From the NCBI GenBank assembly GCA_017553625.1, contig JAFZKP010000013.1, positions 374 through 64,373 on the forward strand: a stretch of 64,000 nucleotides of DNA, written 5' to 3'. How positions within the stretch are numbered: position 1 is the first letter of the stretch; each line of letters starts with the position of its first letter. This DNA comes from Bacteroidales bacterium (GTDB lineage: Bacteria; Bacteroidota; Bacteroidia; Bacteroidales; F082). Below are positions 35,085 through 55,562 of the stretch, piece after piece. A program made the translations under genes and the position numbers. The notes below the pieces were generated by a model. That model was not told the DNA's origin, did no database searches, and saw only the letters and a program-made list of their open reading frames with translations.

Positions 35085-36548
35085 ATGAACGAGAAAAACA
35101 TAAAAGACACACTGCTGAAAGGAGAACGCGTTACACTTGAAGCAAAACGTGCAAAAACAGAGGTTCCTAAATCTGTTTGGGAATCCTATTCCGCTTTTGC
35201 AAACACTATCGGCGGACTTATTTTGCTTGGCGTTGATGAAGACCGAAAAGAAAAAGACCCGGCAAAAAGGTTTCATATTATCGGAGTCGATGATGCCCAG
35301 AAGATAGTCACCGACTTTTGGAATACCATCAACAGCGATAAGGTTAACGAAAACATCCTTACCGATAACGACGTTAATATTGTTACTATCGACGGCGTTC
35401 AAATTGTCTTCATCCATGTTCCGCAAGCCGATTGGCGCATTAAGCCAATCTTCCTGAATGGCAATGTGTATAAAGGTACATATCGACGCAATCATGAGGG
35501 CGACTATCATTGTTCCGAACGACAGGTAAAAGCCATGATACGCGACTCTATCGAAGATGGCAACGACGGCATCCTGATTGAACACTACGACATGAACGAC
35601 ATCGACCTCGACACACTGCACCGCTACCGTACATTGTTTCAGTATCGCAACGAAGGTCACGTGTGGAATGAAGTTGATGATAAAACATTCCTTCGTAATT
35701 TGGGAGGATATGCTGTCGATAGGGAAGCTGGTAAAGAAGGCCTGACAATGGCAGGTCTGATGATGTTTGGCAAAGGGCTTTCCGTACGTGAGCGTTTCGA
35801 TAACTTTCGCATGGACTATCTCGATTTTTGCAACCTTATTGGCGAGGAGCGTTATAGCGACCGTCTCACTTATGATGGACGCTGGGAAAACAATCTTTAT
35901 CAGTTCTTCAGCCGTGTGTTGCCTAAAATGACTGCCGACCTGCCTCGTCCGTTCCGAATGGAAGGTGTGCAGCGCGTTGATGACACTCCTCAGCACAAAG
36001 CTGTGCGTGAGGCATTCACCAATGCAATAATACACGCCGATTTTATTATGGAATCAGGAATTTTGCGCATCGAAAAACACAACGACAAACTTGTATTCCG
36101 CAATCCTGGGTTGCTTAAACTGCCTATAGAGCAAGTTTACCAAGGTGGCGTTTCGTTTGCGCGTAATCCTAAAATTCAGAATATGCTTCGTATGGTTGGC
36201 TATGGCGAAAACATAGGTTCTGGTTTTCCGTTGATTCTCAATGCTTGGAAACAGACCGACTGGGGCGAACCTGAGCTGAAAAACAAAATCGACCTCGACG
36301 AAATGGAACTGGTGTTGCCGGTGCCAAACGTCACAGAAACTACCCAGAAAACTACCCAGAAAACTACCCAGAAAATTCTGGAACTCATACAGCAAAATGC
36401 TTATATCACCAGAAAAGAGTTGGCTGAAAAATGTGGAGTGTCGTCCGATGGTATCAAATGGCAGCTGCGTCAGATGCAAAACAAAAACATCATTCGCCGC
36501 ATCGGTCCCGACAAAGGTGGTTATTGGGAGTTAGTTCCGCAAAACTAA
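35085..36548 (+). CDS. AlbA_2/Schlafen-like putative DNA-binding domain + HATPase_c_4-like + wHTH protein
   Basis: 487 aa. Has 'GERVTLEAKRAKTEVPKSVWESYSAFANTIGG.ILLGVDE', 'REAFTNAIIHADF' and a C-terminal 'ITRKELAEKCGVSSDGIKWQLRQMQNKNIIRRIG' wHTH. Confidence 0.8.
   Translation: MNEKNIKDTLLKGERVTLEAKRAKTEVPKSVWESYSAFANTIGGLILLGVDEDRKEKDPAKRFHIIGVDDAQKIVTDFWNTINSDKVNENILTDNDVNIVTIDGVQIVFIHVPQADWRIKPIFLNGNVYKGTYRRNHEGDYHCSERQVKAMIRDSIEDGNDGILIEHYDMNDIDLDTLHRYRTLFQYRNEGHVWNEVDDKTFLRNLGGYAVDREAGKEGLTMAGLMMFGKGLSVRERFDNFRMDYLDFCNLIGEERYSDRLTYDGRWENNLYQFFSRVLPKMTADLPRPFRMEGVQRVDDTPQHKAVREAFTNAIIHADFIMESGILRIEKHNDKLVFRNPGLLKLPIEQVYQGGVSFARNPKIQNMLRMVGYGENIGSGFPLILNAWKQTDWGEPELKNKIDLDEMELVLPVPNVTETTQKTTQKTTQKILELIQQNAYITRKELAEKCGVSSDGIKWQLRQMQNKNIIRRIGPDKGGYWELVPQN
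36339..36374 (+). repeat. In-frame 12-nt tandem repeat x3 (ACTACCCAGAAA = TTQK)
   Basis: Three perfect copies in the linker before the wHTH of the 35085..36548 gene. Confidence 0.9.
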
Positions 36549-36556: not shown

Positions 36557-36586
36557 AAATGCCTGGTTCGAGAACCAGGCATTTTT
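36557..36586. terminator. Bidirectional terminator hairpin between convergent genes
   Basis: 'aaatgcctggtt-cgag-aaccaggcattttt' has a perfect 12-bp stem with A/T runs on both sides. Confidence 0.7.
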
Positions 36587-37977
36587 CAATTCCCATAATT
36601 CCTACGATTCCTACACGTAGCAATCTTCATTTTTTTCCCATTTACTTTTGCCCAATGCCTTAAGTAACACAGGACCTCCACATGTTTCTCATATTTATCA
36701 CTTGAATAGCTACTACATTCTTCAAAAAGCTCTTCATAGTTATATGGAATATTATCACCTGTTAGGCTATCATCTATGGTCTGACCCATATGTGCGAATG
36801 CTAAAGTGTAATATTCCAAGGCTTTAATACGGTTTACGGATGTACCGACACCATATAAAAAACAATCACCTAATGCCCATTGTGCATTTCCCCAATCATA
36901 TTCTGCAGCTATAGTGAAACACTTTACTGCATGTTCATAGTTTTGTGGGACATCGTGCCCTGCGCTATCTTTTCCATCCACATAATCATATCCCATTTCT
37001 GTTAAGGAAGCTAAGATATCATAAGAAAAATCTCCTGTCCATCCATCGTGATTCAATGCTCTGCGATACCATTTCATGGCTAACAGGTAATTAATCCTAA
37101 CTCCATACAACCCAAGGGAATAACAATCACCCAATTCCGACTGCGCAACTGGTTCATCATTAAATGCTGCCTCTGTATATAATTCCACACCACGCTTAAA
37201 GTCTTGTTTAACACCAATTCCTTGAACATAGCATCGCCCCAAAGCAGTCTTTGCGCAAATAATGCCCTGCTCGACAACCTTTGAATACAAATTAAATGCC
37301 TTTTTCCCATTTTTTTTCACTCCTAACCCATAATCAAACATTGTCCCCAACCCAAATTGCGCCGCAATATTTCCTTGTTTCGCTCGTCTAAAGATATAAT
37401 TAATAGCTTCTTTGCACTTGTAGTTTCTTGAAAATTCGATTTCCCATGCAACTTCTTGATACCAACTACATGCCTCCTCATTGTTTTGTGGAACGCATTT
37501 TCCTTTGAGAAAACAGTTCCCCAATTTACACATTGCTAACAAATCCTTATTCTCTACTGCCTTTTTCAACCATTCAATCATCATGCTATCATTATCATTA
37601 GTAATAGGCATGTCCAACACTCTGTATATATACATCATAGTAATTGTTCGCATAGCTTTATCATGACCACTCATCGCAGCTTTTGTATAATACACAAAAG
37701 CTTTACCCAAATCAGGTTGAACACCCATACCTTTTGCGTAACATTCGCCCAAATGATACCATCCGTCATGTTTTCCCTCATTTGCATCTCTGTTATATAA
37801 TTCCAGTTGTTTTTTCACCACTTCTGCATTGCAATATGAAGGAGTAAATCCATAATGTTTGTACAGAATGGTTAATCCATCCAATACCTTATCATCGCCG
37901 AATTTATCTGCGATATCATCCATCAATTCTTCGAAGCTCAGATCTTTGAAATCACTGTTTGTCCTATTAGTTTCCAT
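36586..37977 (-). CDS. Sel1-like (SLR/TPR) repeat protein
   Basis: 463 aa with multiple 'G.C(Y/F)..G.GV..D..KA...Y..AA' repeats, for example 'LGECYAKGMGVQPDLGKAFVYYTKAA'. Confidence 0.85.
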   Translation of the reverse strand: METNRTNSDFKDLSFEELMDDIADKFGDDKVLDGLTILYKHYGFTPSYCNAEVVKKQLELYNRDANEGKHDGWYHLGECYAKGMGVQPDLGKAFVYYTKAAMSGHDKAMRTITMMYIYRVLDMPITNDNDSMMIEWLKKAVENKDLLAMCKLGNCFLKGKCVPQNNEEACSWYQEVAWEIEFSRNYKCKEAINYIFRRAKQGNIAAQFGLGTMFDYGLGVKKNGKKAFNLYSKVVEQGIICAKTALGRCYVQGIGVKQDFKRGVELYTEAAFNDEPVAQSELGDCYSLGLYGVRINYLLAMKWYRRALNHDGWTGDFSYDILASLTEMGYDYVDGKDSAGHDVPQNYEHAVKCFTIAAEYDWGNAQWALGDCFLYGVGTSVNRIKALEYYTLAFAHMGQTIDDSLTGDNIPYNYEELFEECSSYSSDKYEKHVEVLCYLRHWAKVNGKKMKIATCRNRRNYGN

Positions 37978-38031
37978 AGTGTAAGTGTTTTATTGTTAAT
38001 ACTAATTAGTAAGCATCACATGTTCAGCTAC

Positions 38032-38039
38032 AAAATTAG
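38032..38039 (-). promoter_or_regulatory. Bacteroidetes -7 promoter box (TAATTTTG)
   Basis: Plus 'caaaatta', about 55 nt upstream of the ATG at 37977. Confidence 0.35.
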
Positions 38040-38199
38040 TAAAGCAAAAAGGCAAATACTACATAGTACTAATATAGTATTATAATAAAAAGAGAATGTA
38101 AATTTACATCAAACTCCTAAAGCTAAATAATGTACACTAGTGACTTAAAGCTACTCCAGCACTCCGATGTAAATAGCCTGGAAATCGTAAAGGATATAG

Positions 38200-38766
38200 T
38201 TATCTAGAACTTAGGTATTCTTTGGTTTTAACTTTGACATCATCAATTGCTTCATCAATTGAAACAGGTCTGTTGTCATGTGCATCCAACGATACATTAT
38301 ACATATATGGCAATCCATTATAAAACTTCTCTTTTGAGTGAGTGTGCCCAAAGAAATTAACAGTCCACTCCTTAGGTTTCTTTTCTGTTTCCAAATCGAC
38401 AGTAATTGACGGAAAATGGCTTAGATAATACTCACGGCCTTTATATCGAATTAACTTAGCATATAAAACCTCGATAATGCTTCTTTCATTTTTATATAAA
38501 TCAATTCGAGCATCTGTGTCATGATTGCCAAGAATGATGTGTTTTTTACCTTTCAATCGACGAATAATGGTCATGCCCTCTTCGTTGTTATGTTCTTTTC
38601 CGCCGACCATCAAATCGCCTAGGATGTAAACATCATCATCGTCATTTACTATTTCATTCCAGTTTTTTTCGATAGCGGCATTCATGTCTTCTGCACTTTG
38701 AAATCCTCGTGGTTCATATATAAAGAATCTGTGATATAGGTGTAAATCTGACGTAAGATATATCAT
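38200..38766 (-). CDS. Calcineurin-like metallophosphoesterase
   Basis: 188 aa with 'IYLTSDLHLYH', 'ILGDL', 'LGNHD' and 'FGHTH'. Confidence 0.8.
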   Translation of the reverse strand: MIYLTSDLHLYHRFFIYEPRGFQSAEDMNAAIEKNWNEIVNDDDDVYILGDLMVGGKEHNNEEGMTIIRRLKGKKHIILGNHDTDARIDLYKNERSIIEVLYAKLIRYKGREYYLSHFPSITVDLETEKKPKEWTVNFFGHTHSKEKFYNGLPYMYNVSLDAHDNRPVSIDEAIDDVKVKTKEYLSSR

Positions 38767-39048
38767 GCTTTGAGAGTTTTATAATCTGCAGCAAAGATAT
38801 GAATTTTTAATCAAAAAATAATAGAGTAACATTAAATATTATGAATGTGCTAGTTTTCATCAAATCTAGACAGTTATAAATCATTCATTAAGAGAAGTAC
38901 TATAATAATCCCATATAGTGTAGTGTTGATTTTTGCAATATATTTGCATTCGACAAATAATGATTAAACACACGCTTAGAAAACACATGGTATTATTTGA
39001 CATCAAAAATATGATATTCCGATAATTGTGTTTATAGTAGTTTTTTAT

Positions 39049-39056
39049 TATTTTTG
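39049..39056 (+). promoter_or_regulatory. Bacteroidetes -7 promoter box (TATTTTTG)
   Basis: TAnnTTTG match about 30 nt upstream of the ATG at 39086. A second match (TATATTTG) lies near 38.94 kb. Confidence 0.45.
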
Positions 39057-39085
39057 CAATTATTAATTAATAAGACATCATCTAT

Positions 39086-40957
39086 ATGGAAGATAGAATA
39101 ATCGTATGTTGGAACAAAAATGGATTTGAAGAGGAGTTAAAGAAAAACCCATCATTCATTGTTTGCACAAGTTTCAATGAGTTTAAGAATCTGAACAAAA
39201 TGTTACTTAAGAATACCATTGGTTTTGTCGTTTTGTGTGAATTGACCTGGGATGATGAAAAAGATAATCTTACATTGTTAGAGTTTGGAGGTATTACGTT
39301 TGTCCAACGTTATGTTCGAGGTAAAATGAGTTTAAAAGCACCGGTTGTTTTTACTTCAATTAATGAGCGTGACTATATTATTAGCAAACGACGTGATGCA
39401 ACAATAATAAAAACGCCCGCACTGCAACATGGATTTGTGAAGTTTAATCCTACAACAATCCGTAAAGATTTGGTGCGCACATTACAAAACATGCAATATC
39501 TGACAAATGCAGAGCTCGCTTATACAAAACTATTATATTGTGATATCAAAGGATTATTGGTGCAAATCAGCCATGAATTAGGCAGTAGAGCAAAAAACGA
39601 GCAAGATAAATATCGAAAAGACATTGAATATGTTATCAAAGAACAATTTAATAATGACAGTGGCTTGATAGAATACCTCCATAATACTGATGATTTGGGT
39701 GACTTTTGCAAGAAGCTTATAACAAGGCTAGAATCTTCGGAAAACTTACCAGAATACGGTGGTTTCCTTAATGATATTCGTCATAAAACAATAAGAATAT
39801 TGTTGGTTGATGACAAACAAGAAGAGGATGAATATGTTGGCAATTTCGTTAATTACATCAAAAATATGGGACAAAAGAACAAAAACCCTATGTTTAAAAT
39901 AACTGTAATTAACAATATAGATATTGTCGACTATGACTCAATAATAGATTATGATGTGATTATTTGTGATATTGAAATAAGAAATGACAAAGATGAGCTT
40001 ATAACACTTGGTTTTAACATAATTGAAAAAATGGCTAAAATAAGCAAGCGTCCTTTGTATTATATTGTAACAAATGTGTCTCGAAGTCTTTATGACCAAA
40101 TAAAAACTCCATATGTTAAACGAATTCGTCTTAAAAAAGAGGTTTTTGGCACAAAACAAAGTATAGAGACATTTTTGTATGGCATCAAAGAAGTGTTTGA
40201 TAGTAAATCGGAAGATACTGCAGGAAATGATAGCATAGGTGAAGCGGCATTTAAAAAATTTGATGCATTTATCAGAACAGATATATATCCTATTAATATA
40301 AGTTTTAAATCGTATTTAAGGAGCGTTGAGTCCTATGATGATCTTGCCAGTATTATTGTTAAAGATAAAACATTAGAACTAATTAAATATTTTCTAACAA
40401 TTTTTAGTGAAAATGATTTTAAACAAGGAATCGGAGAATATGAAAAATTTAAAATATTTGATGATAATTGTAAAAGAATGCGAGATTATATAAAAGATAA
40501 TTTTGGATATGGCAACGGTAAAAGTATTATCAAACGCATAAACGACAACGAAGAATTATCATCTAAAGATGTGAGTAATTTTGTGGTAAAAATAATTTTG
40601 AGGAGGTTTTTTTTATATGTAAAATCATTCGTTGAACATTATGACATAATGGAGTCTTTTAAGGCTTATAAAAACTCCGATATAGAAATAGCAGAGATCA
40701 ACAAAGATAGAAGTTTAACTGTTAAAGACATTGCCTGTAGGGCTATCAGCGACCAATTCAAAAAGTTGTTAACTTCAAAAGGAGCGCATAGATCTCAAGA
40801 GGACATGTCTCATTGTTTGGGTGAAACATTGCTAATAAAGGCTGAGCGAGAGCCTATGTTAATGAATGATGAAGAAAAGATTTTTATTAGTATTATAAAA
40901 GGAAATGAGAGTTTTTATTCAACAAATAAAAAGATTATACAAGGATTAAAGATGTAG
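39086..40957 (+). CDS. Hypothetical protein with receiver (CheY)-like segments and an unknown ~250-aa C-terminal region
   Basis: 623 aa. The central segment 'IRILLVDDKQEE...YDVIICDIEI...LYYIVTNVS' keeps the receiver-like acidic pair, Asp and Thr. The N-terminal 'RIIVCWNKNG...FVVLCELTWDD...APVVFTS' shows a similar beta-alpha pattern. No family recognised for the rest. Confidence 0.65.
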   Translation: MEDRIIVCWNKNGFEEELKKNPSFIVCTSFNEFKNLNKMLLKNTIGFVVLCELTWDDEKDNLTLLEFGGITFVQRYVRGKMSLKAPVVFTSINERDYIISKRRDATIIKTPALQHGFVKFNPTTIRKDLVRTLQNMQYLTNAELAYTKLLYCDIKGLLVQISHELGSRAKNEQDKYRKDIEYVIKEQFNNDSGLIEYLHNTDDLGDFCKKLITRLESSENLPEYGGFLNDIRHKTIRILLVDDKQEEDEYVGNFVNYIKNMGQKNKNPMFKITVINNIDIVDYDSIIDYDVIICDIEIRNDKDELITLGFNIIEKMAKISKRPLYYIVTNVSRSLYDQIKTPYVKRIRLKKEVFGTKQSIETFLYGIKEVFDSKSEDTAGNDSIGEAAFKKFDAFIRTDIYPINISFKSYLRSVESYDDLASIIVKDKTLELIKYFLTIFSENDFKQGIGEYEKFKIFDDNCKRMRDYIKDNFGYGNGKSIIKRINDNEELSSKDVSNFVVKIILRRFFLYVKSFVEHYDIMESFKAYKNSDIEIAEINKDRSLTVKDIACRAISDQFKKLLTSKGAHRSQEDMSHCLGETLLIKAEREPMLMNDEEKIFISIIKGNESFYSTNKKIIQGLKM

Positions 40958-41003
40958 ATTTGATACTATATAGTTACTATAATAAACATATGGAAAATGG
41001 CCG

Positions 41004-41011
41004 CTATATTT
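41004..41011 (+). promoter_or_regulatory. Bacteroidetes -7 promoter box (TATATTTG)
   Basis: Exact match about 56 nt upstream of the ATG at 41067. Confidence 0.45.
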
Positions 41012-41066
41012 GCATTGTTGGTTTAAGATCCAAGTATAGATGTAAAATTTAATAATAAATAGTGTT

Positions 41067-44000
41067 ATGACAAACAAAAACAATATGGATTATTTAGTAG
41101 AAGACATAAGAAACGATGAAAAATCGTGCGCTGATTTTAGAGTAACATACAAAACGAGGTATAGCTTGTTGTTTGCACTTGACGAGAGCACAAATGAATT
41201 ATCCTTGATTGACGACATTGAAAATGTCAATGGAGAAAATGTCGTCATTAAAATACCAGCTAAAGTGCTGGATTATCCAGTTACAGGAATTGTCCGATTT
41301 TATGAATGCAGCTATTCCGAACAAATTCAAAAGCTAATCATTCCGGATTCAACTGTTAATATTGGAGAAGATGTATTTGCTTCATGTCCTGTAAAAAGTG
41401 TAGTAATTCCTGAATCTGTAACCAGTATTGGCGAAAATGCTTTTTCAGAGTGTTATTATTTAAAAAATGTCTTTATTCCTGCCTCTGTTATAAGAATCGG
41501 AACCGGAGCTTTTTCAGGATGCTCTAGATTGTCATCTATTAAAGTTGACAACAATAATATCTATTACGACTCTCGTAATAATTGTAATGCTATTATTAAA
41601 ACACAAGAGAATGTGCTTGTTGTTGGAAGTAAAAAAACAATTATTCCAGAAAACATTAATGAAATAGGTTATTCAGCATTTTCCCACATTCACTTAACAA
41701 AGATAGTTATTCCGGACTCCGTAAAGTTTATTGGTGACTATGCATTTTATGAATGTGGATATTTAAAAGAATTGTTCATTCCCAAATCCGTTAAACATAT
41801 AGGAGAAAAAGCTTTCGCTGGTTGCTCAAAGCTTCAGTCAATAGTAGTTGACAAGACCAATATGTTTTATGATTCTCGTTGTAATTGTAATGCTATTATT
41901 AAAAAAGATAGTGATACATTGATAACAGGATGCAAGAATACAATAATTCCAGACACCATTAAAGAGATTGGTGAATATGCATTTTATTTTTTATCATTGT
42001 CAAGTCTGGATATTCCGAAATCTGTTGTCAAGATTGGTGAAAGCGCTTTTAATATGTGTGATGGATTTGAGAGAGTTATCATACCTGATTCTGTCAAAAG
42101 CATTGATAGTCATGCTTTTGACAGTTGCTCTGTTGAAGAGGTTTTTCTTCCAAACAGTATTACCGAAATTGCGGATTCAGCATTTTCTTATAGTGAATTA
42201 AGAAAAATAATTATACCAAATTCTGTTATTAAAATTGCCGATTATGCGTTTTATGGTTGTCACTTTTTGACAGAAGTCGTTATTCCAAATACCCTTACTA
42301 AAATAGGCAAATTGGCGTTTGGATGCTGTCCTAGTGTACAAAACTTATATATTCCAGAATCTGTTGTAGATATTGACGATCTTGCATTTTCTGGATGTTC
42401 TAGGTTGTTAACCATTAATATTGACGAAGGCAACAGAATGTATGATTCGCGTAATAATTGTAATGCAATCATAGAAAGCGCTAAAAATAGGCTTATTCAG
42501 GGTTGTATACACACAAGCGTTCCAGATTCTATTGAAATAATCGGCAATAATGCTTTTTCATTTGTACACATTAGATCTATTAATATACCAAATTCAGTTT
42601 CTGTAATCGAAGATGAGGCTTTTTATCATTGTTGGAAACTTGAAAAGTTGGTGCTTTCGAAACATACGAAAAAAATAGGCAACTTCGTTTTTTGCGGATG
42701 TTCTGCTTTATCAGATATTATCGTGCCAGATTCTGTAGTTGAAATCGGTGAAGGGGTATTTGCAGAATGTGATAATCTACAAAAAATAGTTATAGCCGAG
42801 CCAGCAGCTTTAAATAATGCGTATGTTCCAAAGCATACAAAAATAGAAAACAAGCAGCCTTCATTATTTGACGACAGTTCTGTTGATGTCTCAAACCAAA
42901 ATGCGGCAAGAATAGATAAAATATTATATAAACAAGCAGTATTACAAAAAAGAATAGATCAACTAACTCTTCAAATAATTAATGAAGATACAAAGAGGAG
43001 TCAACGTTCAATTTTTTATGACGCAGCATGGAGATTGTTAATAAGTACCAATGAGCAAAACCCTGAAGATGATGAAAAAAAACATTTGCTGGATGATGCG
43101 TTGTTTGAAATAATTAATTGTATTGATCTGGATAATCCAGACAATAATCCTGGTATAATAGTATTTGATGTACTTAAACGCAAATACTTTGATTTTTATG
43201 ATTTACAATTCATCAAATTTATCAACATATTTAACAATACTGGCAAGGAACAATTAGGTCATATCAGTTATTTTGCTGATTTTACACACAGTGCAAGTGG
43301 AGAAAACCTAATAAGGAAAGGTAAGGAGTTTATTACTAATAATTCTCATAAGGTTGATTTTAACAATGAGTATAACATTGTTGATGTTTCAATGTCAATA
43401 AAGGATTTGTTGAACGATTCAATATATTCTACTGCCTGCTTTGAATATAGCAAACAATCTAAGCCACCTGTTTTTTCTAATGGATACTATGCGTACAAAC
43501 TAGGATCCCTAAGCAAAAATTATGGTTATTCTAAGGGTATTACAGATTTGATATGTGAAAAAGAAGAGGATTCGTCCAAAGAAAATATATTCAATCACTG
43601 TTTAGATATCATTGATAATGGTTATAGTAATAGTTTTACAAACTATTTTCTTCTTTGGGGAAACTTGGCAAAAAAACACACGAATAAAAATGCCGAAATA
43701 GATAGGTTTTGTGTTTGTGCAAATGTTGGAATTGACATTAATAAAGGTAAAAAAGAAGACATAATCGCTTTTTTAATAAATTTTCAAAGATTTATTGACA
43801 AGCTTTCTTTTTGCCTTATTTTTGAAATCAAAAATCACCAACTTCATCAATCCGCAGCTATCGCTTCTGTCTCACAAGCTTTGACACGCAACATGAGTCA
43901 TAATATTAGGTCACACGTGTCAAGCAACTACACTTCGAATAAAGCTTACGAGATACTAAAAGACGATTATATAAAACAAAATCTGAACAATTACATATCT

Positions 44001-45860
44001 TCTGAAGAAGATAAAGTCGTATTTCCTTGTGGGGAAAATCTCCAGTTGCCATATTTTATTCAGTATCTGAATAACCGTATGGACTATTTAAGCGAAATGA
44101 CCTTTGATGTTCCTTCTATAATGACAACAAAACGTTTTTACGCAAACATTTTTAAAGAATTAGATCGAGGGCGCATCTTGCTAAACCATATTCCTGGCAT
44201 ATCGGGATTCAGGTATGAATTTTCACTAATATACAATGGTAAAACCATGTCCGATCAAAACGATTTATCAGTGTATCTGCCAGATGTACTTGGAAATCAA
44301 GCAGTGTTTAATATTTTAGAAAACATCATTAGAAACACAGCCAAGCATTCGACAAGACACAATGATGATAAAATTGTTTTCAATATTGAAGTTGTTGAGG
44401 ATGCAAATTTCCCGGAATACTATTGTGTTGAGATTGATAATGGGATAAATGTAGATGACATTACAGAATTAGTGTGTAAACAGAACAAAATACTAAATGA
44501 TTCCGTATTGGGTGACGACGAAAAGCTTCGTACATACGGATTGGGGTTGCTCGAGATGGCTGTGGCTGCTGCTTTTCTCCGCCAGGTCGATATTGTAAAA
44601 GTGGATTCATATGAATACCGTTTTGAGAACACGGACGAATATACCAATAAATATGGCAATCTCATACTTCTTAAAGCCATAAATAAAAATGGTGCTTTAG
44701 GCTATCGGTTCTTCCTAAAAAAACCGATGGAGTTTCTGTTTTTAGGAGCTTTCGATGTCCTAGATTCACTAAAAACTGTTTTGGCTAAAGATGGCATCAA
44801 TTTTATCAGCGAAGAAGCTTTTGCCAAGGCTATGGACAAAAACGAATCATTTTTTCATTCGTTTATGTTTTATCCAAATACTGTGTCAGAAAAGACAAAA
44901 ACACTATTATCGGATGAATGCGATTGTAAAACCTTGCTGCCAGTACGAAAAATCAAATTAAATAAGGCAGAGATTCAGGAAATCAGCAAAAAAATTTTTA
45001 ATGGCGGCAATGACGTTCTTTTGCAATTAAAGGATACGGCTTGGAATAAGTATTTTTCTGCGACAATAGTAAAAGAACTGAAAAATCCTAATAATGCAAC
45101 ATTAGAAATACTCACATCTTTTGATTCAGAAAAAGACGAACAAACTGGAACTGCGAGTAATCAGGTTGTATTTCTGGATCATGGATTTAAAAAAATACAA
45201 GAAATTGCATGGGAACAGGCAAATAACGACAGCTCTTATGAAGCATGGATTGAAAACCTTTCAAGCCGAACAAGTGCAAAGCTTCCTGAGTTTGCTAGTT
45301 TGTCTATTGGGACAAAAGACAAAATCTGCAATTATGTGAATAATATTAGTAATTTGAACCGTATCAAAATAGAATTGTTTGAAGCGTACCACAACAAGGT
45401 CATTGTTTTGGACGAACGTATTCAAAGATTCTTAAAAGGTAGTTTCGAAGGCTCCTCGAACGAATATGGCGGTCCTATTCCTTGCCAAGAGCTTTTCAGA
45501 TCAACCAATGTACACATTCCCGAGACACCTCTTGATCCCAACACATTTGATAATATGGATAAAATGGAATTAGAGCGTTTTGTTAACGAAAATATACATG
45601 AAGCGTTCTTATTGATACACTATGGCATTTTAGAGCGTTTCTATCATGGCGAAAGAACAAAAATGGAAGAAGTATTAAATGAGTGGTCAAAGAAAGCGAA
45701 ACGTGTAGTGGTGACCAGCGGTCGCGGATCTCATTCATTGCCTCTACCTCCATCAGTGTGTTTCATTAATCTTTCTTCTGTTTTATATGCCTTTACGGAG
45801 AACAGAAACAAATTTATAATCAATTATTTACTCAATCAATCTAGAAGAAAAAATGGATAA
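41067..45860 (+). CDS. Giant cytoplasmic protein: BspA-type leucine-rich repeats + histidine-kinase-like (GHKL) ATPase module + degenerate receiver-like C-terminus
   Basis: 1597 aa with no signal peptide or TM run. About 500 aa are LRR_5-type repeats ('IPDSVK.IG..AF..C..L..I.IP.SV..IG..AF'). Then come 'RNMSHNIRSH' (H-box-like), 'NILENIIRNTAKHS' (N-box), 'VEIDNGINV' (G1-like), 'YGLGLLEMA' (G2-like), and the C-terminal 'VIVLDERIQ...FLLIHYGILE...VVVTSGRG'. Confidence 0.7.
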   Translation: MTNKNNMDYLVEDIRNDEKSCADFRVTYKTRYSLLFALDESTNELSLIDDIENVNGENVVIKIPAKVLDYPVTGIVRFYECSYSEQIQKLIIPDSTVNIGEDVFASCPVKSVVIPESVTSIGENAFSECYYLKNVFIPASVIRIGTGAFSGCSRLSSIKVDNNNIYYDSRNNCNAIIKTQENVLVVGSKKTIIPENINEIGYSAFSHIHLTKIVIPDSVKFIGDYAFYECGYLKELFIPKSVKHIGEKAFAGCSKLQSIVVDKTNMFYDSRCNCNAIIKKDSDTLITGCKNTIIPDTIKEIGEYAFYFLSLSSLDIPKSVVKIGESAFNMCDGFERVIIPDSVKSIDSHAFDSCSVEEVFLPNSITEIADSAFSYSELRKIIIPNSVIKIADYAFYGCHFLTEVVIPNTLTKIGKLAFGCCPSVQNLYIPESVVDIDDLAFSGCSRLLTINIDEGNRMYDSRNNCNAIIESAKNRLIQGCIHTSVPDSIEIIGNNAFSFVHIRSINIPNSVSVIEDEAFYHCWKLEKLVLSKHTKKIGNFVFCGCSALSDIIVPDSVVEIGEGVFAECDNLQKIVIAEPAALNNAYVPKHTKIENKQPSLFDDSSVDVSNQNAARIDKILYKQAVLQKRIDQLTLQIINEDTKRSQRSIFYDAAWRLLISTNEQNPEDDEKKHLLDDALFEIINCIDLDNPDNNPGIIVFDVLKRKYFDFYDLQFIKFINIFNNTGKEQLGHISYFADFTHSASGENLIRKGKEFITNNSHKVDFNNEYNIVDVSMSIKDLLNDSIYSTACFEYSKQSKPPVFSNGYYAYKLGSLSKNYGYSKGITDLICEKEEDSSKENIFNHCLDIIDNGYSNSFTNYFLLWGNLAKKHTNKNAEIDRFCVCANVGIDINKGKKEDIIAFLINFQRFIDKLSFCLIFEIKNHQLHQSAAIASVSQALTRNMSHNIRSHVSSNYTSNKAYEILKDDYIKQNLNNYISSEEDKVVFPCGENLQLPYFIQYLNNRMDYLSEMTFDVPSIMTTKRFYANIFKELDRGRILLNHIPGISGFRYEFSLIYNGKTMSDQNDLSVYLPDVLGNQAVFNILENIIRNTAKHSTRHNDDKIVFNIEVVEDANFPEYYCVEIDNGINVDDITELVCKQNKILNDSVLGDDEKLRTYGLGLLEMAVAAAFLRQVDIVKVDSYEYRFENTDEYTNKYGNLILLKAINKNGALGYRFFLKKPMEFLFLGAFDVLDSLKTVLAKDGINFISEEAFAKAMDKNESFFHSFMFYPNTVSEKTKTLLSDECDCKTLLPVRKIKLNKAEIQEISKKIFNGGNDVLLQLKDTAWNKYFSATIVKELKNPNNATLEILTSFDSEKDEQTGTASNQVVFLDHGFKKIQEIAWEQANNDSSYEAWIENLSSRTSAKLPEFASLSIGTKDKICNYVNNISNLNRIKIELFEAYHNKVIVLDERIQRFLKGSFEGSSNEYGGPIPCQELFRSTNVHIPETPLDPNTFDNMDKMELERFVNENIHEAFLLIHYGILERFYHGERTKMEEVLNEWSKKAKRVVVTSGRGSHSLPLPPSVCFINLSSVLYAFTENRNKFIINYLLNQSRRKNG

Positions 45861-46512
45861 AGTGCTGATATTTACCAACGAAAATAGTTGGAATAACATT
45901 TCTAAAAAAATCAGGGATAAAGTTAATTGGGATACATATCCCAATAACAACAGCCCGATAATGCAATGTGTTGTTAACCATAACAATAAAGTTGATTTGT
46001 ACTCCAAACCTGATTTTAATGAAGCAGGAATATATCTTGTCTATGATAAAATCAATATGGCTCAACTTTCGCAACTGTTAGACAAATGCAAAAATGATTC
46101 TTTATATATCCTGTTGCATTCATATAAAGAAGGAAGACGCAGACATGAAGATTTTACGCCTTGGGAAAGATACTGCCATATTGAACGTGGTTTGCATGAT
46201 AATGATGATAGTTTCAAGTATAAGCCGACGTTTAAAATTATTGCAGATTCCGAAGGAAATAAGATAGAGCGTATTATTAAAGATATTTTTTCACCATTAG
46301 AAGAAGCTGTCATAGAATTGCTGCATATCTGTACGGTTCCAAAAAAGAAAATTGAAGAAACAGATGCTTATCGAACGCTTATTCAAAATGAAGAATATAG
46401 AAACCTTCTAGAAAAGTTTAAAATAAAGTACGATTCATGTAACAATTTTGACGAATATAAGGATGTATGGGAAAAATTACGAAAAGATATTGTCCCCTTC
46501 CCTGAAAATTAA
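45853..46512 (+). CDS. Small hypothetical protein, translationally coupled to the giant gene (flavodoxin/receiver-like beta-alpha pattern)
   Basis: 219 aa. Its ATG overlaps the upstream stop (ATGGATAA, 8-nt overlap). The N-terminus 'KVLIFTNENSW' resembles 'RIIVCWNKNGF' of the 39086 gene. Confidence 0.65.
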   Translation: MDKVLIFTNENSWNNISKKIRDKVNWDTYPNNNSPIMQCVVNHNNKVDLYSKPDFNEAGIYLVYDKINMAQLSQLLDKCKNDSLYILLHSYKEGRRRHEDFTPWERYCHIERGLHDNDDSFKYKPTFKIIADSEGNKIERIIKDIFSPLEEAVIELLHICTVPKKKIEETDAYRTLIQNEEYRNLLEKFKIKYDSCNNFDEYKDVWEKLRKDIVPFPEN

Positions 46513-46707
46513 GTAAACTCATGAACTTAGACTGTTAATAATGAGAGTGAAAACTAAACTATGTCCGGCTACAAAACAACGTAGAAGTTTAATTTACGCT
46601 CTCAACTTTATTAAATCTTGTGTCCTACAAGATGGTTTGCGTCAATAGTCAAAATTCTTCTTTTCTTTGGCTTAAACGCATATCCGATTTTCAGGGAAGG
46701 GAACAAT
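46489..46707. repeat. 21-bp inverted repeat pair (20/21 identical) flanking a 177-bp spacer
   Basis: IR-L is attgtccccttccctgaaaat (46489..46509) and covers the last codons of the 219-aa gene. IR-R (46687..46707) reverse-complements to attgttcccttccctgaaaat. Confidence 0.85.
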
Positions 46708-46791
46708 CGAAGGTATAGGATTTGTTATGCCGGAAAAGATATGAGATCTTTTTGCCTTGTTTGATGAGATGGGAAATTAAGTACATTGTTT

Positions 46792-47493
46792 TTATTCTTT
46801 TCGTATAATCCTTGCGTACAAATGCATTTGATGTTCATGAAAAAAACCTGTTTCTATAGTAAATACTGACTCATCAATGGAGTTGGAAAGAAATAGCTTC
46901 CAACTGTCAATACTCCAGAAATGTATATGTTGTTCATATGTATCGAGTTTTCCGTTAGGAACAGTGATAATAGCGACACCATTTCTGTTTAATGCATCGA
47001 GAATATTTTTAACGGCAATTTGGGGATATAAAAGATGTTCTATTGTCTCTATGCAATAAACAACATCAAATTTTCCATCTATAGGATCGTAAATATCATG
47101 AACGGAGCATAGCAGATCGGGAATCATTAGACTTTTAGTCACGTTAACGCATGATTCAGAAAAGTCACAAGCACAAAACGGATTAGGTTTGTATAATGCG
47201 CTTATTTCTTCACACAATACGCCTGTGCCGCATGACACATCAAGTACTCCTTTCCCCGATATATCTATACCCGTTAGTCTAATTATTGATTTGTAAAATG
47301 GCACCTTTCTTTTAAATCCATAATACGTGTTCCTATTCACAGCTTTATTGATTGATTCCTTGCTATTACGATTAATAGCGGAAAAACCTCTGTCTTTCTT
47401 CTTAATAAAAATAATTTGATATCCAAACATATCCAGCTTATGTCTTGAATACAGTATTCTCCTAAACATATTCTTTTTTTTGTGCGATTTCAA
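46792..47493 (-). CDS. Class I SAM-dependent methyltransferase
   Basis: 233 aa with the 'VLDVSCGTGVL' motif I. An alternative start at M9 (47469) would reduce the overlap with the upstream gene. Confidence 0.8.
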   Translation of the reverse strand: MKSHKKKNMFRRILYSRHKLDMFGYQIIFIKKKDRGFSAINRNSKESINKAVNRNTYYGFKRKVPFYKSIIRLTGIDISGKGVLDVSCGTGVLCEEISALYKPNPFCACDFSESCVNVTKSLMIPDLLCSVHDIYDPIDGKFDVVYCIETIEHLLYPQIAVKNILDALNRNGVAIITVPNGKLDTYEQHIHFWSIDSWKLFLSNSIDESVFTIETGFFHEHQMHLYARIIRKE

Positions 47494-48232
47494 GATTAAC
47501 TAATACACGAAGGTCGATTATCCCTTCATAAGATTTTAATAAATTGTATATTTCTGTGTTTATTTGTTTATCTAAGTAACAATGTCCAATAAATGTTTCT
47601 AGCAAAGCAAGAAAATCATTAGAACTAACAGTGATAATGTTTTCAATCTCTTTATGCTCAACCAATGTGAATTCAGAGCTTTCTTCTATGTCTTTTCTTC
47701 TCTTTTCAATTTTCAGAAGTTGCTTTTGATAATTGCATTCAAATTGTTCATTATAGTGTTTATATATATTTGAGATTTCATTGTTTATTTCGCTATCAAA
47801 CACGCTATAATTGTTCCAATACAAAACCAAATAGCCTTTTTCATTTAATAAATCAGATGCTTTTTTATATTTAATTGACTTATCTATCCAATGAAAAGCT
47901 GTTGCTGAAATAATTCCATCATATTTGTTGCTTGAATAAAAACTCTCAAAGTTACAGCCAATAATCTTTATATTTTTAGTGGCAAACTTATGTTTCAACA
48001 ATGAAACAAAGTGATCACCTGGTTCAACGACTGTCAAATCAGGATGCCACTTTCTATATATTTCATTCGTTGCTATTCCACTCCCAGCTCCTATTTCAAG
48101 TATTTTTGAATTTGAATTAAACCCGCATATGGATGATATTATTTGATATACATCATCAACATAACCAAGTCTTGCAGACTGATATGTTTCATAATATTCA
48201 TTAAAATACCATTTCTGTTTTTCGTCTTTCAT
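47462..48232 (-). CDS. Class I SAM-dependent methyltransferase
   Basis: 256 aa with the 'ILEIGAGSGIAT' motif I. Confidence 0.8.
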   Translation of the reverse strand: MKDEKQKWYFNEYYETYQSARLGYVDDVYQIISSICGFNSNSKILEIGAGSGIATNEIYRKWHPDLTVVEPGDHFVSLLKHKFATKNIKIIGCNFESFYSSNKYDGIISATAFHWIDKSIKYKKASDLLNEKGYLVLYWNNYSVFDSEINNEISNIYKHYNEQFECNYQKQLLKIEKRRKDIEESSEFTLVEHKEIENIITVSSNDFLALLETFIGHCYLDKQINTEIYNLLKSYEGIIDLRVLVNLEIAQKKEYV

Positions 48233-49047
48233 ATAAACATATTAAATGCGGTGATAATTTCTTGTTTTTTTATCTCAACCATACTTTTTGTTATACGATA
48301 TTCTCTATTTATCCTATCACAATCAATATCAATGATATTGTTAACATCTAAAGCGGTTGCTTTTATTCCAAATGTTGAATAATAATCATGAAACTTAAAA
48401 CCATCTCCCAATAGATTATTTGTAAGCTTTATCCAACAATTGGGAATCCCCAAACTATCAGCAACAACCAATCCGTGCAAACTACTGGATATGATACATT
48501 CGCACTCCGCCATTGTTTTAATAATGCTAAGTGGATTGTCTTGTACGTCAATAATAATACTTTTTGAATTATTATTCAAAATATCAATAAAATGCTTTTC
48601 ATGTCTTTCTCTATCATGGGGTATTATTCCTAGTCTATATCTTTTCATTCTCATACTACCAATCAATTCACTTGCCAACAAACCTGCATCTCCAGTAGTA
48701 ATATTTAAAGACTTACCATATAGCTTTTCCAGAAATGCTTTAGACATTTCACCTCTGACTGAAGAAATATTAAAGTCTTTAATAGGCATGATATCATTTG
48801 CTGGTGTCGATAAAAAACCTGCGGACCATATTTGACTGGGAAAACTATTTTCAATTCTTTTTTGATTGTCTATTTGCTGTGTTTTTCGAAAAAAAAGACG
48901 AAGCCCACTTCCAATCCCACTTGTTTCACAACTATACTCATCCGCCCAAGCAACTTTTTTCCCAAATACATGTTCAATTATAATTGGATTTAAGGCATTC
49001 CCGAAGTTCTTTCTGATAGAATAGCATACTTTCACGGTCTTTCCCAT
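48229..49047 (-). CDS. Polysaccharide pyruvyl transferase family protein
   Basis: 272 aa with 'NFGNALNP', 'GIIPH' and 'SSSLHGLVVADSLGIP'. Confidence 0.7.
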   Translation of the reverse strand: MGKTVKVCYSIRKNFGNALNPIIIEHVFGKKVAWADEYSCETSGIGSGLRLFFRKTQQIDNQKRIENSFPSQIWSAGFLSTPANDIMPIKDFNISSVRGEMSKAFLEKLYGKSLNITTGDAGLLASELIGSMRMKRYRLGIIPHDRERHEKHFIDILNNNSKSIIIDVQDNPLSIIKTMAECECIISSSLHGLVVADSLGIPNCWIKLTNNLLGDGFKFHDYYSTFGIKATALDVNNIIDIDCDRINREYRITKSMVEIKKQEIITAFNMFI

Positions 49048-49053
49048 ATCAAA

Positions 49054-49737
49054 CTATTGTTTTATTTTATTTATTATTATTTCTGCATTATTAATACTTG
49101 AATCCTTCATATCAACAATTACTTTATTCCTAACAATTGAATTTGATATTAGCGCCAAATTACTTTCTTTTATCATCAGTAATTCACCCAAAGAATCTTT
49201 ATAAGCAAATCTGTCTTTCTTATCGCGTTGTTTTATTCTATACATTGTGGAATCTAGATCTAATTGACAATCAACATAAAGTACATCAAATGGATTCTCG
49301 TTTATGCTCTTTGTAATCCGTTCTATCAATTCCACTTTCTTTATAACATTATCATGAGGAATTGAAGACAGGAATTGTATTATACCCTCGTCCAAAACAA
49401 TTATTTGTGTTTTGTTATTCCTATACAAGTCGATAACCATAACTGTATACAGCAAATATATTATGGAATAACGATTGAAAGGAAACGAAAGTGCATATTT
49501 TAACAAAAAGGTTTTTGTTTTATAGTTAGTCGGCTTTAATAGCTCAAGTCCAAGACATAAAAAAAGACATAACGGACGATCCCAATACTTGTTTATTTTG
49601 CCTGAAATGTCCGATCTACGCAACACAATGCCAGGATACTCCCTTTGCAAGATTGACAGGATGGAATGAGTTAAAGTTGACTTTCCACAGCCTGGCAAGC
49701 CATATAGTTCTATGATTTTAATATTTGGAAGATTCAT
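49054..49737 (-). CDS. P-loop NTPase/kinase-like hypothetical protein
   Basis: 227 aa with a 'LYGLPGCGKSTL' Walker A and a later 'VLDEG'. Confidence 0.6.
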   Translation of the reverse strand: MNLPNIKIIELYGLPGCGKSTLTHSILSILQREYPGIVLRRSDISGKINKYWDRPLCLFLCLGLELLKPTNYKTKTFLLKYALSFPFNRYSIIYLLYTVMVIDLYRNNKTQIIVLDEGIIQFLSSIPHDNVIKKVELIERITKSINENPFDVLYVDCQLDLDSTMYRIKQRDKKDRFAYKDSLGELLMIKESNLALISNSIVRNKVIVDMKDSSINNAEIIINKIKQ

Positions 49738-49748
49738 GATTCTATGAT

Positions 49749-50819
49749 TTAATCATTCGTTTCAAGAATAGTATATTTGTATTTTTTGTAATTCAAACAC
49801 AAGTGTTTGAACAAACCTTCCACATCCCCTTTTTGCATAAACACATATAGCATAGGGAATGTATTCGCAAAGAATGCTTTGTGTTTAATTATGTCAAATA
49901 ATTCTATGTACTTTTTGCATAAATAATAATGCGATTTTTTGTTGTTTGTCTTAGACCATAACCATTCTATTTCTGAAAAAACACGAGATATTACAAGAAG
50001 ATAATCGGCCTTGTCTTCAATTAAATTATTTGATAACATCACAATGTATTTTCTCGCAAGCAATTGAGATACTATCTTTTTCTGAGAGAAATATTGGGAG
50101 TCCAAAGAATCCTTTCTCTTGCAATAGTGGTAATGTGTGTCGTTAACTAAAACTATATCTTTTGCCTTTATACAAGCATGACGTTGAAACACAAAATCCT
50201 GACCACAAAAAACATCTTCTGGAAATAGAATGTGGTATTTTCGGAGTAATTCTAACTTGTAAACAGCACTCCACCATTGAGCATAAAAGAAGTACTTGTT
50301 TATTGGGATGTAAGACGCAATATCTTTTACTCCAAATGCAGCGCCCTTAACAATATCTGCATCGTTTGCAATGGATTTGAGATAAAGTTTTTCATAAAAG
50401 TCAATATCTAAATAATCATCAGGATCAATAAAACTGGCATATTTACCTGAAGCTATTTTCATCCCAGAATTTCTTGCTCGTGCAACTCCATAATTCTTAT
50501 CATGGGCAATAACCCGAATTCTTTCATCCTTATGTTCATATTCGTGTATTATAGATAATGAATCGTCAGTAGATTTATCATCTATAAGAATTATCTCAAT
50601 ATTGGGAAATGATTGGTTAATGACAGTATCCAAACATCTACGAAGGTATTTCGAAACATTATAACATGGTATAATCACAGAAAAATAGCATCCAATGGGA
50701 TCATCGTTTGTTGATTGTGTATTATGATGTACAAGCATTCCAGAATGGCCTGTAATTAGCCCAGTATTCTTTACCATATCAAAGAGATTTCTATTATTGT
50801 CTGCCTTGTTTGTTTTCAT
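49749..50819 (-). CDS. Glycosyltransferase family 2
   Basis: 356 aa with 'FSVIIPCYNVSKYLRRCLDTVINQSFPNIEIILIDDKSTDDS' and 'DPDD'. The start is uncertain (M1, M15 or M28). Confidence 0.85.
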   Translation of the reverse strand: MKTNKADNNRNLFDMVKNTGLITGHSGMLVHHNTQSTNDDPIGCYFSVIIPCYNVSKYLRRCLDTVINQSFPNIEIILIDDKSTDDSLSIIHEYEHKDERIRVIAHDKNYGVARARNSGMKIASGKYASFIDPDDYLDIDFYEKLYLKSIANDADIVKGAAFGVKDIASYIPINKYFFYAQWWSAVYKLELLRKYHILFPEDVFCGQDFVFQRHACIKAKDIVLVNDTHYHYCKRKDSLDSQYFSQKKIVSQLLARKYIVMLSNNLIEDKADYLLVISRVFSEIEWLWSKTNNKKSHYYLCKKYIELFDIIKHKAFFANTFPMLYVFMQKGDVEGLFKHLCLNYKKYKYTILETND

Positions 50820-50912
50820 ATCTATTGATTTTATAGTTTAGCAAGCAATTGAAGTACATAAACAGATTGACCTACTGATATAAATATAGTGTACATATAG
50901 TTACCCTCCTCA

Positions 50913-50920
50913 CAAAAGTA
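50913..50920 (-). promoter_or_regulatory. Bacteroidetes -7 promoter box (TACTTTTG)
   Basis: Plus 'caaaagta', about 95 nt upstream of the ATG at 50819. Confidence 0.3.
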
Positions 50921-51168
50921 ACTTTAAAAATGTTGTTAATGCAGATTAAGCACTTGTTTTTCCGAAATCGTCATTATGTTGATATTACATCGTTTATTGG
51001 CAATCAAAAATCCAAACTATACAAACATTGCCCTCTTGATATTGAGACATAGTAGGTTCATGAATAGAATCTGTATGAAATAAACTAACAACTTCTATTT
51101 ATAGTAACAGAATAACAATTTGTTGGCATAATGAAACAACATAAATAAACAGAAATGCTCCTGTTATT

Positions 51169-51756
51169 TCATCTCAACCCTAGACTATCATAACAATGGC
51201 TTGGACCACATTCGTTTCCAATAACCAATCCTTTGATAGTTATAACACGACCAGTTGGCACACCAAGGTTAAAAAGTGCTATTGGATTTTCGTTATTTAG
51301 TCCACCTGCCGATAATCCCTTTAATGTGTAAGCCCAATCAGCCCTACGTGACATATAGTCTCCGGGACCAAGATTGTTCATGTTATTATAATAGGAGTCA
51401 TTGTATTCCCATTTTTTTGATAGAATTGTATCTGGGACAAGAAAAAATCCGTATTTTGTTATAGTTTCAATATTAGTCCAGTCTCCCATAGAAGAATAAC
51501 CTATTGGAAAATCTCGAACCACATTGCCCGAAATAGAATATTTATTATTTACAGCTTTACAAAGGCATTCTATTTTTCCCCATCCATTATGAGTAACTCT
51601 TTCTAGAACAATTTCTGCATTGTCACCAAATTTGCGCCAATGTGTACCAACTAAAAAATGACACCAGAAGGATGTGGTTTTAAAATTATCTGGCGCGGAG
51701 TAATGAACTTTGATTTCAAACATAATTGTTATGGTGGACTTCTTATTATTACACAT
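51169..51756 (-). CDS. Hypothetical protein (orphan, own promoter)
   Basis: 195 aa with no recognisable family. An alternative start is M12 (51723). Confidence 0.5.
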   Translation of the reverse strand: MCNNKKSTITIMFEIKVHYSAPDNFKTTSFWCHFLVGTHWRKFGDNAEIVLERVTHNGWGKIECLCKAVNNKYSISGNVVRDFPIGYSSMGDWTNIETITKYGFFLVPDTILSKKWEYNDSYYNNMNNLGPGDYMSRRADWAYTLKGLSAGGLNNENPIALFNLGVPTGRVITIKGLVIGNECGPSHCYDSLGLR

Positions 51757-51821
51757 CTATACTCGCCATATTATTTGTTTCTGTGAAGTCCATTTAACAG
51801 AATCAATATATAACGACAGTG

Positions 51822-51829
51822 CAAAGATA
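51822..51829 (-). promoter_or_regulatory. Bacteroidetes -7 promoter box (TATCTTTG)
   Basis: Plus 'caaagata', about 66 nt upstream of the ATG at 51756. Confidence 0.45.
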
Positions 51830-55557: not shown

Positions 55558-55562
55558 GATGT

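Follow-up and report, generated by a model that had tools for sequence, protein, structure and literature searches.

In this study, which was based on a window of 64,000 nucleotides (the whole stretch analysed) from a rumen-type Bacteroidales metagenome-assembled genome (MAG; contig JAFZKP010000013.1), we analysed a cassette of three co-directional and co-transcribed genes that, with about even confidence, we consider to be an undescribed phosphotransfer module of two-component type, wholly cytoplasmic and restricted to Bacteroidota, in which a modular input is combined with an obligate third subunit. The open reading frames (ORFs) encode an atypical response regulator of 623 aa (gene 1, G1), a divergent histidine kinase of 1597 aa that is fused to a leucine-rich repeat (LRR) array (gene 2) and a small partner of the kinase of 219 aa (gene 3, G3). 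By its fold the cassette is a two-component system and by its sequence it is an unannotated outlier; at NCBI, the products of genes 1 and 3 of this MAG (MBR4837220.1 and MBR4837222.1) are listed as a 'hypothetical protein' and as 'hypothetical', and that of gene 2 (MBR4837221.1) is named 'leucine-rich repeat domain-containing protein'. The coordinates given in a first-pass annotation, which had been made by a model from the sequence alone, proved to be exact, including those of the 8-nt overlap between genes 2 and 3 (ATGGATAA, 45853-45860) that places the start of G3 inside the last codons of gene 2. Through this overlap G3 is translationally coupled to the kinase. A terminator scan found no terminator-like site on the plus strand inside the cassette, and a sigma-70 promoter scan was uninformative, the sigma-70 model being unsuited to Bacteroidota.

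The predicted fold of gene 2 is that of a sensor histidine kinase with DHp helices and a GHKL catalytic (CA) domain. An AlphaFold2 (AF2) model of the part outside the LRR array (aa 601-1597), which was built from an alignment of 67 sequences, reached a pLDDT of 86 and a pTM of 0.80, and a Foldseek search of the PDB matched it with sensor histidine kinases at probability 1.0, among them YF1 (4gcz, 8a6x), the hybrid kinase ShkA (6qrj), HprS and EL346. The CA domain also matched the isolated catalytic domains of ThkA, MprB and ETR1 (target TM-scores 0.59-0.62, probability 1.0), and the full-length alignments placed aa 710-891 on the PAS or GAF part of the PAS-kinase YF1 and of phytochromes. The HisKA H-box has the consensus N-x-S-H-x-x-R, which is fitted by the RNMSHNIRSH motif on the long DHp helix (core residues 296-355). 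Among 48 diverse homologs, His945, Asn946 and His950 of this motif were invariant, as were the patterns R..HN...H and EN.IRN.AKH and the G..E of the G2 box; the G1 box is only partial in the window protein (EIDNGIN), where the second glycine is missing. The H-box SHNIRSH and the ATPase module that had been read from the letters of gene 2 were thus both recovered by structure and by conservation.

Judged by sequence, the kinase family is a distant outlier. Pfam returned only LRR_5 and LRR_8 for gene 2 (best E=8e-103), and NCBIfam only adhesin-type LRR models that were far below their cut-offs. HATPase_c, which was the top recurrent weak Pfam match over the homologs, remained below threshold in the window protein (E=0.071, 14 bits against a cut-off of 26.4), and HisKA gave no Pfam match in gene 2. 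Sequence and profile searches of the PDB with the kinase core, G1 and G3 produced nothing useful, and among 292 homologs of the core from a set of 5.8 billion proteins none had a Pfam domain outside the N-terminal fusions. The earlier statement that the cassette matches no named system agrees with these results, as Pfam, NCBIfam and PADLOC gave no family match beyond the LRR. Neither gene 2 nor the stand-alone LRR proteins of its relatives had a signal peptide or a transmembrane segment; the whole of gene 2, including the LRR array that the first-pass annotation had placed in the cytoplasm, is therefore cytoplasmic. A comparison of the LRR-bearing homologs showed an identity of 7-21% in the linker, 25-35% in the PAS-like domain and approximately 40% in the LRR, with changes in repeat number, compared with 49-62% in the DHp, 59-75% in the CA and 50-61% in the C-terminal part, and by these values the input side of gene 2 diverges fastest. 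A strain-level variant on a 24.8 kb contig has gene 2 called as two ORFs (P0277, 920 aa, and P0278, 681 aa), which may reflect a frameshift or pseudogene, or else an error of assembly.

The end of gene 2 had been taken for a degenerate receiver-like tail. This was not confirmed. The region is modelled as a double alpha/beta module that has no profile tie to receivers: profile-profile comparisons of the C-terminal and middle kinase domains with REC, and of the C-terminal sub-domain with G3, were all non-significant, and member-by-member scans found no consistent Pfam family for the module. Its invariant residues are His1372, Asp1449-Glu-Arg, His1518 (in LLIHYG) and Ser1551-Gly-Arg-Gly, and at the strand-3 position no acceptor Asp is conserved. 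In the AF2 model these residues are located at strand ends, and such a cluster would resemble an active or phosphate-binding site.

G1 holds a canonical receiver with all of the phospho-acceptor residues. Its AF2 model (pLDDT 84) matched PorX, RcsB, RpaA, DrrB and CheY-like receivers at Foldseek probability 1.0, and its matches in BFVD were likewise receiver-containing proteins. The motifs LLVDD, ICDIE and IVTN, which had been singled out by eye as receiver-like, correspond to D243, D295 and T329, and together with K350 (in IRLKKE) these residues were invariant or nearly so in 54 homologs; in one distant homolog (L031) Response_reg reached E=7e-07. The N-terminal domain of G1 is probably an inactive receiver-like domain. 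In its VVLCELTW motif, Cys51-Glu52 stands at the position of the acceptor Asp, and TPAL takes the place of Lys-Pro; weak matches to iREC (PF22563) were found in six of the 54 homologs and a weak Response_reg match in another relative (L032). Between the two domains lies a helical segment, for whose invariant H163 an HPt-like phosphotransfer role is a matter of speculation. In distant G1-like proteins, the C-terminal domain is swapped for other unassigned sequence. Pfam scans of the G1-like proteins recognised no effector domain, PNP included, which is in line with the earlier remark that no obvious effector is visible.

The G3 family conserves only Thr8 (VFTN), an invariant His89 (YILxH), Gly113-x-His115 and Tyr123. 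No Response_reg signal was found in any of 26 family members (hhalign against REC, P=0.13), and profile-profile comparisons with REC and iREC and with the C-terminal sub-domain of the kinase were non-significant as well, with P values from 0.012 to 0.35 over all tests. The likeness that had been noted between the 'KVLIFTNENSW' strand of G3 and a strand of gene 1 did not exceed what chance would give (hhalign E=0.067 across 10 columns; P=0.012 across 13). Of the layout that the first-pass annotation had proposed, the sensor kinase, the receiver protein and the coupled small protein were retained, and the description of G3 as receiver-like was not supported. The order of motifs in G3 (YILxH...GxH) and in the C-terminal module of the kinase (LLIHYG...GRGxH) is suggestive only; our hypothesis is that the two may be paralogous His-bearing receiver-like domains. 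A metagenome scan seeded with G3 was unproductive, G3 being too divergent for pattern seeding. The residues of the cassette that are predicted to be catalytic are H945 and N1090 (gene 2), D295 (gene 1) and H89 (gene 3).

Co-conservation of the three genes, which had been set as a test beforehand, was found in both directions. When species-representative genomes were scanned, 43 loci were obtained, nearly all of them in Bacteroidota: MAGs of rumen and gut Bacteroidales, Parabacteroides sp. PF5-9, Capnocytophaga granulosa ATCC 51502, Lutibacter, Flagellimonas, Flavilitoribacter, Saprospiraceae and Chitinophagaceae, in addition to single TM6 and Ignavibacteria contigs. When only well-flanked loci were considered (non-redundant, at least 6 kb on either side; n=34), a G1-like gene was present in 29 (~85%), and a G1-like gene or a second receiver protein ('G4') in 30. 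A recognisable G3 began at most 400 nt after the stop codon of the kinase core in 25 of 41 cores, and nearly all of the other cores were followed by an ORF of 208-300 aa in which the VxFT(T/N) strand and the YxxH motif recur. In the reverse test, in which gene 1 served as the seed in metagenomes, the core and G3 were found downstream on the same strand in 11 of the 12 loci that had enough sequence; G1 relatives numbered 76 among 1.84 billion cluster representatives. Because co-conservation was seen from both seeds, the triad can be regarded as a real unit in which the pair of kinase and G3 is essentially obligate. In some loci, tandem kinase cores, one with an LRR and one without, precede a single G3 (L010:7643-12838 and 12822-15683; L021:8810-12022 and 12069-15818; L062:14736-17732 and 17725-20583), which suggests duplication and sensor diversification within one operon.

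The analysis of the relatives also revealed that the input slot is exchangeable. Over the homologs, the N-terminus of the kinase is an LRR_5 array, a methyltransferase, a SLOG/LOG-like domain, a GNAT domain or nothing, and in L001 and L011 the LRR_5 array forms a separate gene that overlaps, and is translationally coupled to, the kinase gene. The gene directly upstream, which often overlaps the start of the kinase, encodes a polyprenyl synthase, a radical-SAM or B12-radical-SAM enzyme or a stand-alone methyltransferase, or else a CDPS-like gene is found there with a 497-aa protein. ABC importers that belong to the Liv or polar-amino-acid type and come with binding proteins were present in 17 of the 34 well-flanked loci and an SSF symporter in another; methyltransferases and a PLP decarboxylase were also among the neighbours of the family. 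In the clade of the window, the usual operon consists of a ClpX-like AAA+ gene, a SecB-like gene, G1, sometimes a WG-repeat protein, the LRR (fused or separate), the kinase, G3, one or two SPASM radical-SAM genes, Sel1 and PTS_2-RNA, and in this clade there appears to have been a shift towards repeats that bind proteins or peptides (LRR, WG, Sel1). The copy in the window retains only G1, the LRR-kinase and G3, with a Sel1 gene nearby on the opposite strand.

Several features of these neighbourhoods can be described in their own right. The SPASM radical-SAM enzyme of the clade comes nearest to anSME and to CteB, a ranthipeptide maturase; with these maturases as the closest solved relatives, a viperin identity, which 12 'pVip' matches of PADLOC had implied for the neighbouring radical-SAM genes, was rejected. 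Small ORFs lie beside the CteB-like genes (L001:14746-14874 and 16615-16800; L010:20837-20986 and 20986-21087), and Cys/Asp-rich tails (..DCDCDGVDG.., ..CDCDHDCDWCCDSECDCC.., ..DTDCDCDGVDGATA, ..DDSCDCDGPDGSD and ..CDCDHDCDWCCDSECDCCDSECDAW) occur among them, the two longest sharing the leader motif VSE-L/I-x-F-L/V-N. They look like an undescribed family of ribosomally synthesised and post-translationally modified peptides (RiPPs) of the ranthipeptide or sactipeptide type in rumen Bacteroidales, one that is linked to the triad. The ClpX-like AAA+ ATPase (PDB 8yd0, E=9e-31) has a distinct N-terminus of 138 aa and is paired with a SecB-domain protein of 350-400 aa (L001:691-2166 and 2179-3282; also L010, L011 and L013-L015); in most loci of the clade to which the window belongs, the pair immediately precedes G1, and the window itself lacks it. 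In environmental relatives there are in addition a transglutaminase-core/DUF4407 protein and an ORF of ~1165 aa (L005:16623-18575; L057:2-1402 and the following ORFs), and in L057 a receiver is fused to a TraG/VirD4-like ATPase (13827-16532).

Based on these features, the following mechanism can be proposed. The LRR array and the fast-evolving PAS-like domain would bind an intracellular ligand, most likely a peptide or a protein, and this binding would alter the autophosphorylation of His945. The phosphoryl group would pass from His945 to Asp295 of G1, whose phosphorylation would switch the helical C-terminal output domain. G3 would bind the kinase, probably at the C-terminal alpha/beta module, and would gate or relay the phosphoryl flow as an inhibitor, a phosphatase or a carrier. 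Alpha/beta phospho-His carriers exist, for example PTS IIA(Man), and it may be speculated that the strand-end histidines in G3 and in the C-terminal module of the kinase permit such a role. As for the biological role, the sensing of a self-made or imported peptide-like signal, in communication, competition or metabolite sensing, has about an even chance of being correct, and we think it likelier than an abortive-infection trigger, because in the relatives the input slot holds tailoring enzymes, with importers and RiPP-type precursor and maturase genes nearby.

There are several points that weigh against a signalling two-component module of this kind. The kinase and the receiver are both below Pfam thresholds, and their predicted activity is drawn from fold and motifs. 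The C-terminal 267 aa of G1 had no Pfam, PDB or BFVD assignment, and G3 had no assignment in Pfam or the PDB. Beside the cassette in the window there is no importer, tailoring enzyme or precursor gene, so that a role based on a peptide or small-molecule signal is an extrapolation from the relatives. Finally, the genomic setting would also suit defence: the window copy is on an AT-rich island headed by an integrase and adjoins a Schlafen/AlbA_2-type gene, AbiE, PDC-S01, PDC-S27, mads or PtuA-type genes stand beside a small number of related loci, and one locus (L053) is carried by a mobilisable element.

An anti-phage system that resembles Detocs, in which the LRR kinase would sense a phage protein and phosphorylate G1, the C-terminus of G1 would be toxic and G3 would buffer or restrain the response as DtcB does, is unlikely in our judgement, even though this setting is joined by a patchy taxonomic distribution, a modular sensor on a fast-diverging input side and C-termini that vary among the G1-like proteins. 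Detocs consists of the kinase DtcA with an N-terminal TPR, the stand-alone receiver DtcB and the receiver-effector DtcC, with a PNP effector in about 80% of systems. The two share the logic of a three-gene operon with a cytoplasmic kinase that has an N-terminal repeat sensor, a receiver joined to an output that does not look DNA-binding and a small third protein that possibly restrains. They differ in that the sensor here is LRR_5 in place of TPR, no receiver could be recognised in the third protein, neither PNP nor another known effector was detected in the output, the kinase has an extra conserved C-terminal alpha/beta module and the response regulator gene comes first. Moreover, there is no sequence-level relationship: PADLOC found none of the three proteins, with the Detocs models in that PADLOC release unconfirmed. 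The kinase core was without a match in phage, plasmid and IMG/VR collections, and the commonest neighbours are importers and tailoring enzymes rather than defence genes, with the supposed viperins being peptide maturases and the neighbours not being nucleases, TIR proteins or proteases. The defence reading of the first-pass annotation is thus without positive evidence, and a defence role must be described as possible but unsupported.

Quite unlikely, in our estimate, is a broader version in which the cassette would represent a new class of cytoplasmic receptor, with an LRR or enzyme-like sensor passing its signal through the kinase to His-bearing alpha/beta phosphocarriers (the C-terminal module and G3) and on to the G1 receiver, and serving either in immunity, as an NLR-like sensor that detects phage or foreign proteins, or in the reception of self-made RiPP-type peptide signals in Bacteroidota. 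The analogy to NLR-type receptors that the earlier annotation drew is one of logic only. As in NLR and STAND sensors (Avs, bNACHT), a repeat sensor is joined to an ATP-using switch and domains are swapped in a modular way, but neither Pfam nor Foldseek found a STAND (NACHT/NB-ARC) P-loop NTPase, and a GHKL domain with a phospho-His box is present instead. A switch or scaffold driven by ATP, in which the GHKL domain would oligomerise on an LRR ligand in the manner of NLR or MORC proteins, the C-terminal module or G3 would be the real output and the G1 receiver only a regulator, would account for the dense cluster of invariant polar residues at the strand ends of the C-terminal module, which is typical of an active or phosphate-binding site, for the invariant His of G3 and its stoichiometric coupling to the kinase and for the incomplete G1 box of the window protein. 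We nevertheless find it decidedly unlikely, as a pure ATP switch would not need the invariant H-box His and its flanks, which fit HisKA residue by residue, a receiver with all of its catalytic residues is co-conserved and the best Foldseek matches are real histidine kinases and not MORC, Hsp90 or GyrB. That there is no system at all, gene 2 being an ordinary BspA-type surface adhesin with two chance neighbours, is an idea to which we give next to no credence. It is true that the only library matches above threshold were LRR_5 and adhesin-type NCBIfam models and that the NCBI name mentions only the LRR. However, approximately 1000 residues of gene 2 fold as a kinase with extra domains, many kinase homologs are entirely without an LRR, the protein has no export signal and, in both directions, it is strongly co-conserved with genes 1 and 3. 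On these grounds the adhesin reading, which the first-pass annotation had named as a possible refutation, was ruled out.

Among the known systems, the classical and hybrid phosphorelays (ShkA, the YF1/FixL type and RcsCDB) share with the triad the DHp and CA fold, its H-, N- and G2-boxes, the placement of a PAS-like domain ahead of the DHp, alpha/beta domains after the CA domain as in hybrid kinases and a partner with a canonical receiver. The triad differs from them in that its sequences are below Pfam thresholds, its C-terminal module has an invariant His and not the Asp of a hybrid receiver, its input is formed by an LRR or an enzyme domain without a transmembrane sensor and it has an obligate unclassified third subunit. 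In the relatives, a polyprenyl synthase, radical-SAM enzyme, methyltransferase or CDPS that is upstream of the kinase or fused to it, together with importers and Cys-rich precursor-like ORFs, places a signal-maker beside a kinase and a regulator, as in ComQXPA and radical-SAM RiPP loci. This is an analogy of gene order only, with no homology to ComP or ComA shown, and it differs further in that the kinase here is cytoplasmic and the window copy has no accessory genes. With the BspA-type LRR_5 surface proteins the triad shares a homologous repeat array, which here is cytoplasmic and forms the N-terminal module of a kinase. The literature on LRR kinases, conflict systems, iREC, Detocs, Ambrosia and Bacteroidales RiPP mining contained no description of this architecture that we could find. 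The triad is not Detocs, not an NLR and not a secreted BspA adhesin; its new features are the cytoplasmic BspA-type LRR sensor, the conserved C-terminal His/Arg module on the kinase, the iREC-helical-REC-helical regulator and the obligate unclassified third subunit.

With regard to the genomic setting, the first-pass annotation had placed the cassette in the AT-rich cargo of an island headed by an integrase. The AT-rich composition was found (GC 30-35% from ~38 to 56 kb against 40-50% upstream), as was a tyrosine integrase at the head of the island (Table 1). The low-GC stretch (window 38001-56000) runs past the cassette into a convergent polysaccharide-type locus with methyltransferases, a pyruvyl transferase and glycosyltransferases; because it extends so far, low GC cannot on its own identify the cassette as cargo of the island. 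A search for att sites gave no convincing att-like repeats by which the right-hand end of the island could be placed. Upstream of the cassette there are also BT4734-like, DUF3987, Schlafen/AlbA_2-HATPase_c_4-HTH, Sel1-repeat and metallophosphoesterase genes, and the same cassette in the same context was seen again in several metagenome assemblies. A Sel1 BLAST cluster was present in six loci of the window's clade, mostly on the same strand as the triad, and the Sel1 gene is a possible part of the system, its membership being uncertain. The DUF3987 gene (primase/helicase-associated) is split, with ORFs 33614-34372 and 34406-35023 matching two halves of the Pfam model, and an identical split occurs in other assemblies (L058); it is probably a frameshifted or decaying gene of a mobile element. 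A 9-nt repeat (TTCCCCAGT) lies at window 33631-33664, and the gene for the Schlafen-type protein (35085-36548) contains three exact 12-nt tandem copies (AAACTACCCAGA..., window 36337-36375) that code for a TTQK repeat.

Table 1. Positions in the window of the three genes of the cassette, their predicted domains and two neighbouring genes
Feature	Position	Strand	Basis
Tyrosine integrase, island head, upstream of cassette	29981-31216
Sel1-repeat protein, possible accessory gene	36586..37977	-	Sel1 E=4e-48; recurrent neighbour in the window's clade
Gene 1 (G1), atypical response regulator	39086..40957	+	ORF, AF2 model, Foldseek
G1 aa 1-135, probably inactive receiver-like alpha/beta domain	39086..39490	+	AF2 secondary structure, conservation
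G1 aa 136-231, helical segment, invariant Cys152 and His163 (GLLxQIKH)	39491..39778	+	AF2, conservation
G1 aa 232-356, canonical receiver (REC): D243, D295 (acceptor), T329, K350	39779..40153	+
G1 aa 357-623, C-terminal helical domain, presumed output	40154..40954	+	AF2
Gene 2, cytoplasmic LRR-fused divergent histidine kinase	41067..45860	+	ORF, Pfam, AF2, Foldseek
Gene 2 aa ~61-590, BspA-type LRR_5 array, cytoplasmic, swappable input	41247..42836	+	PF13306 E=8e-103
Gene 2 aa 710-891, alpha/beta sensor-like (PAS/GAF-like) domain, putative fold class	43194..43739	+	AF2 secondary structure, Foldseek
Gene 2 aa 892-1015, DHp helices, H-box RNMSHNIRSH (His945, Asn946, His950)	43740..44111	+	AF2, conservation, Foldseek
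Gene 2 aa 1016-1222, CA (GHKL ATPase) domain: N-box ENIIRNTAKH, G1-like EIDNG, G2 YGLGLLEM	44112..44732	+
Gene 2 aa 1223-1597 (~375 residues), double alpha/beta module	44733..45857	+	AF2 pLDDT above 90, invariant residues
Gene 3 (G3), obligate small partner of kinase	45853..46512	+	ORF, family conservation

Two-component systems are well catalogued, yet standard annotation misses this family and reports an 'LRR protein' and two hypothetical proteins. The results indicate that BspA-type LRR arrays, which are usually read as surface adhesins, can serve as cytoplasmic sensor modules of kinases, and that the input slot is exchanged between protein-binding repeats and enzymes that tailor small molecules or peptides. 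Should the cassette act in defence, two-component signalling would have been recruited into immunity a second time and independently, Detocs being the first case. Should it serve communication, it would provide an entry point to peptide or RiPP signalling, which is poorly understood in the Bacteroidales of rumen and gut.

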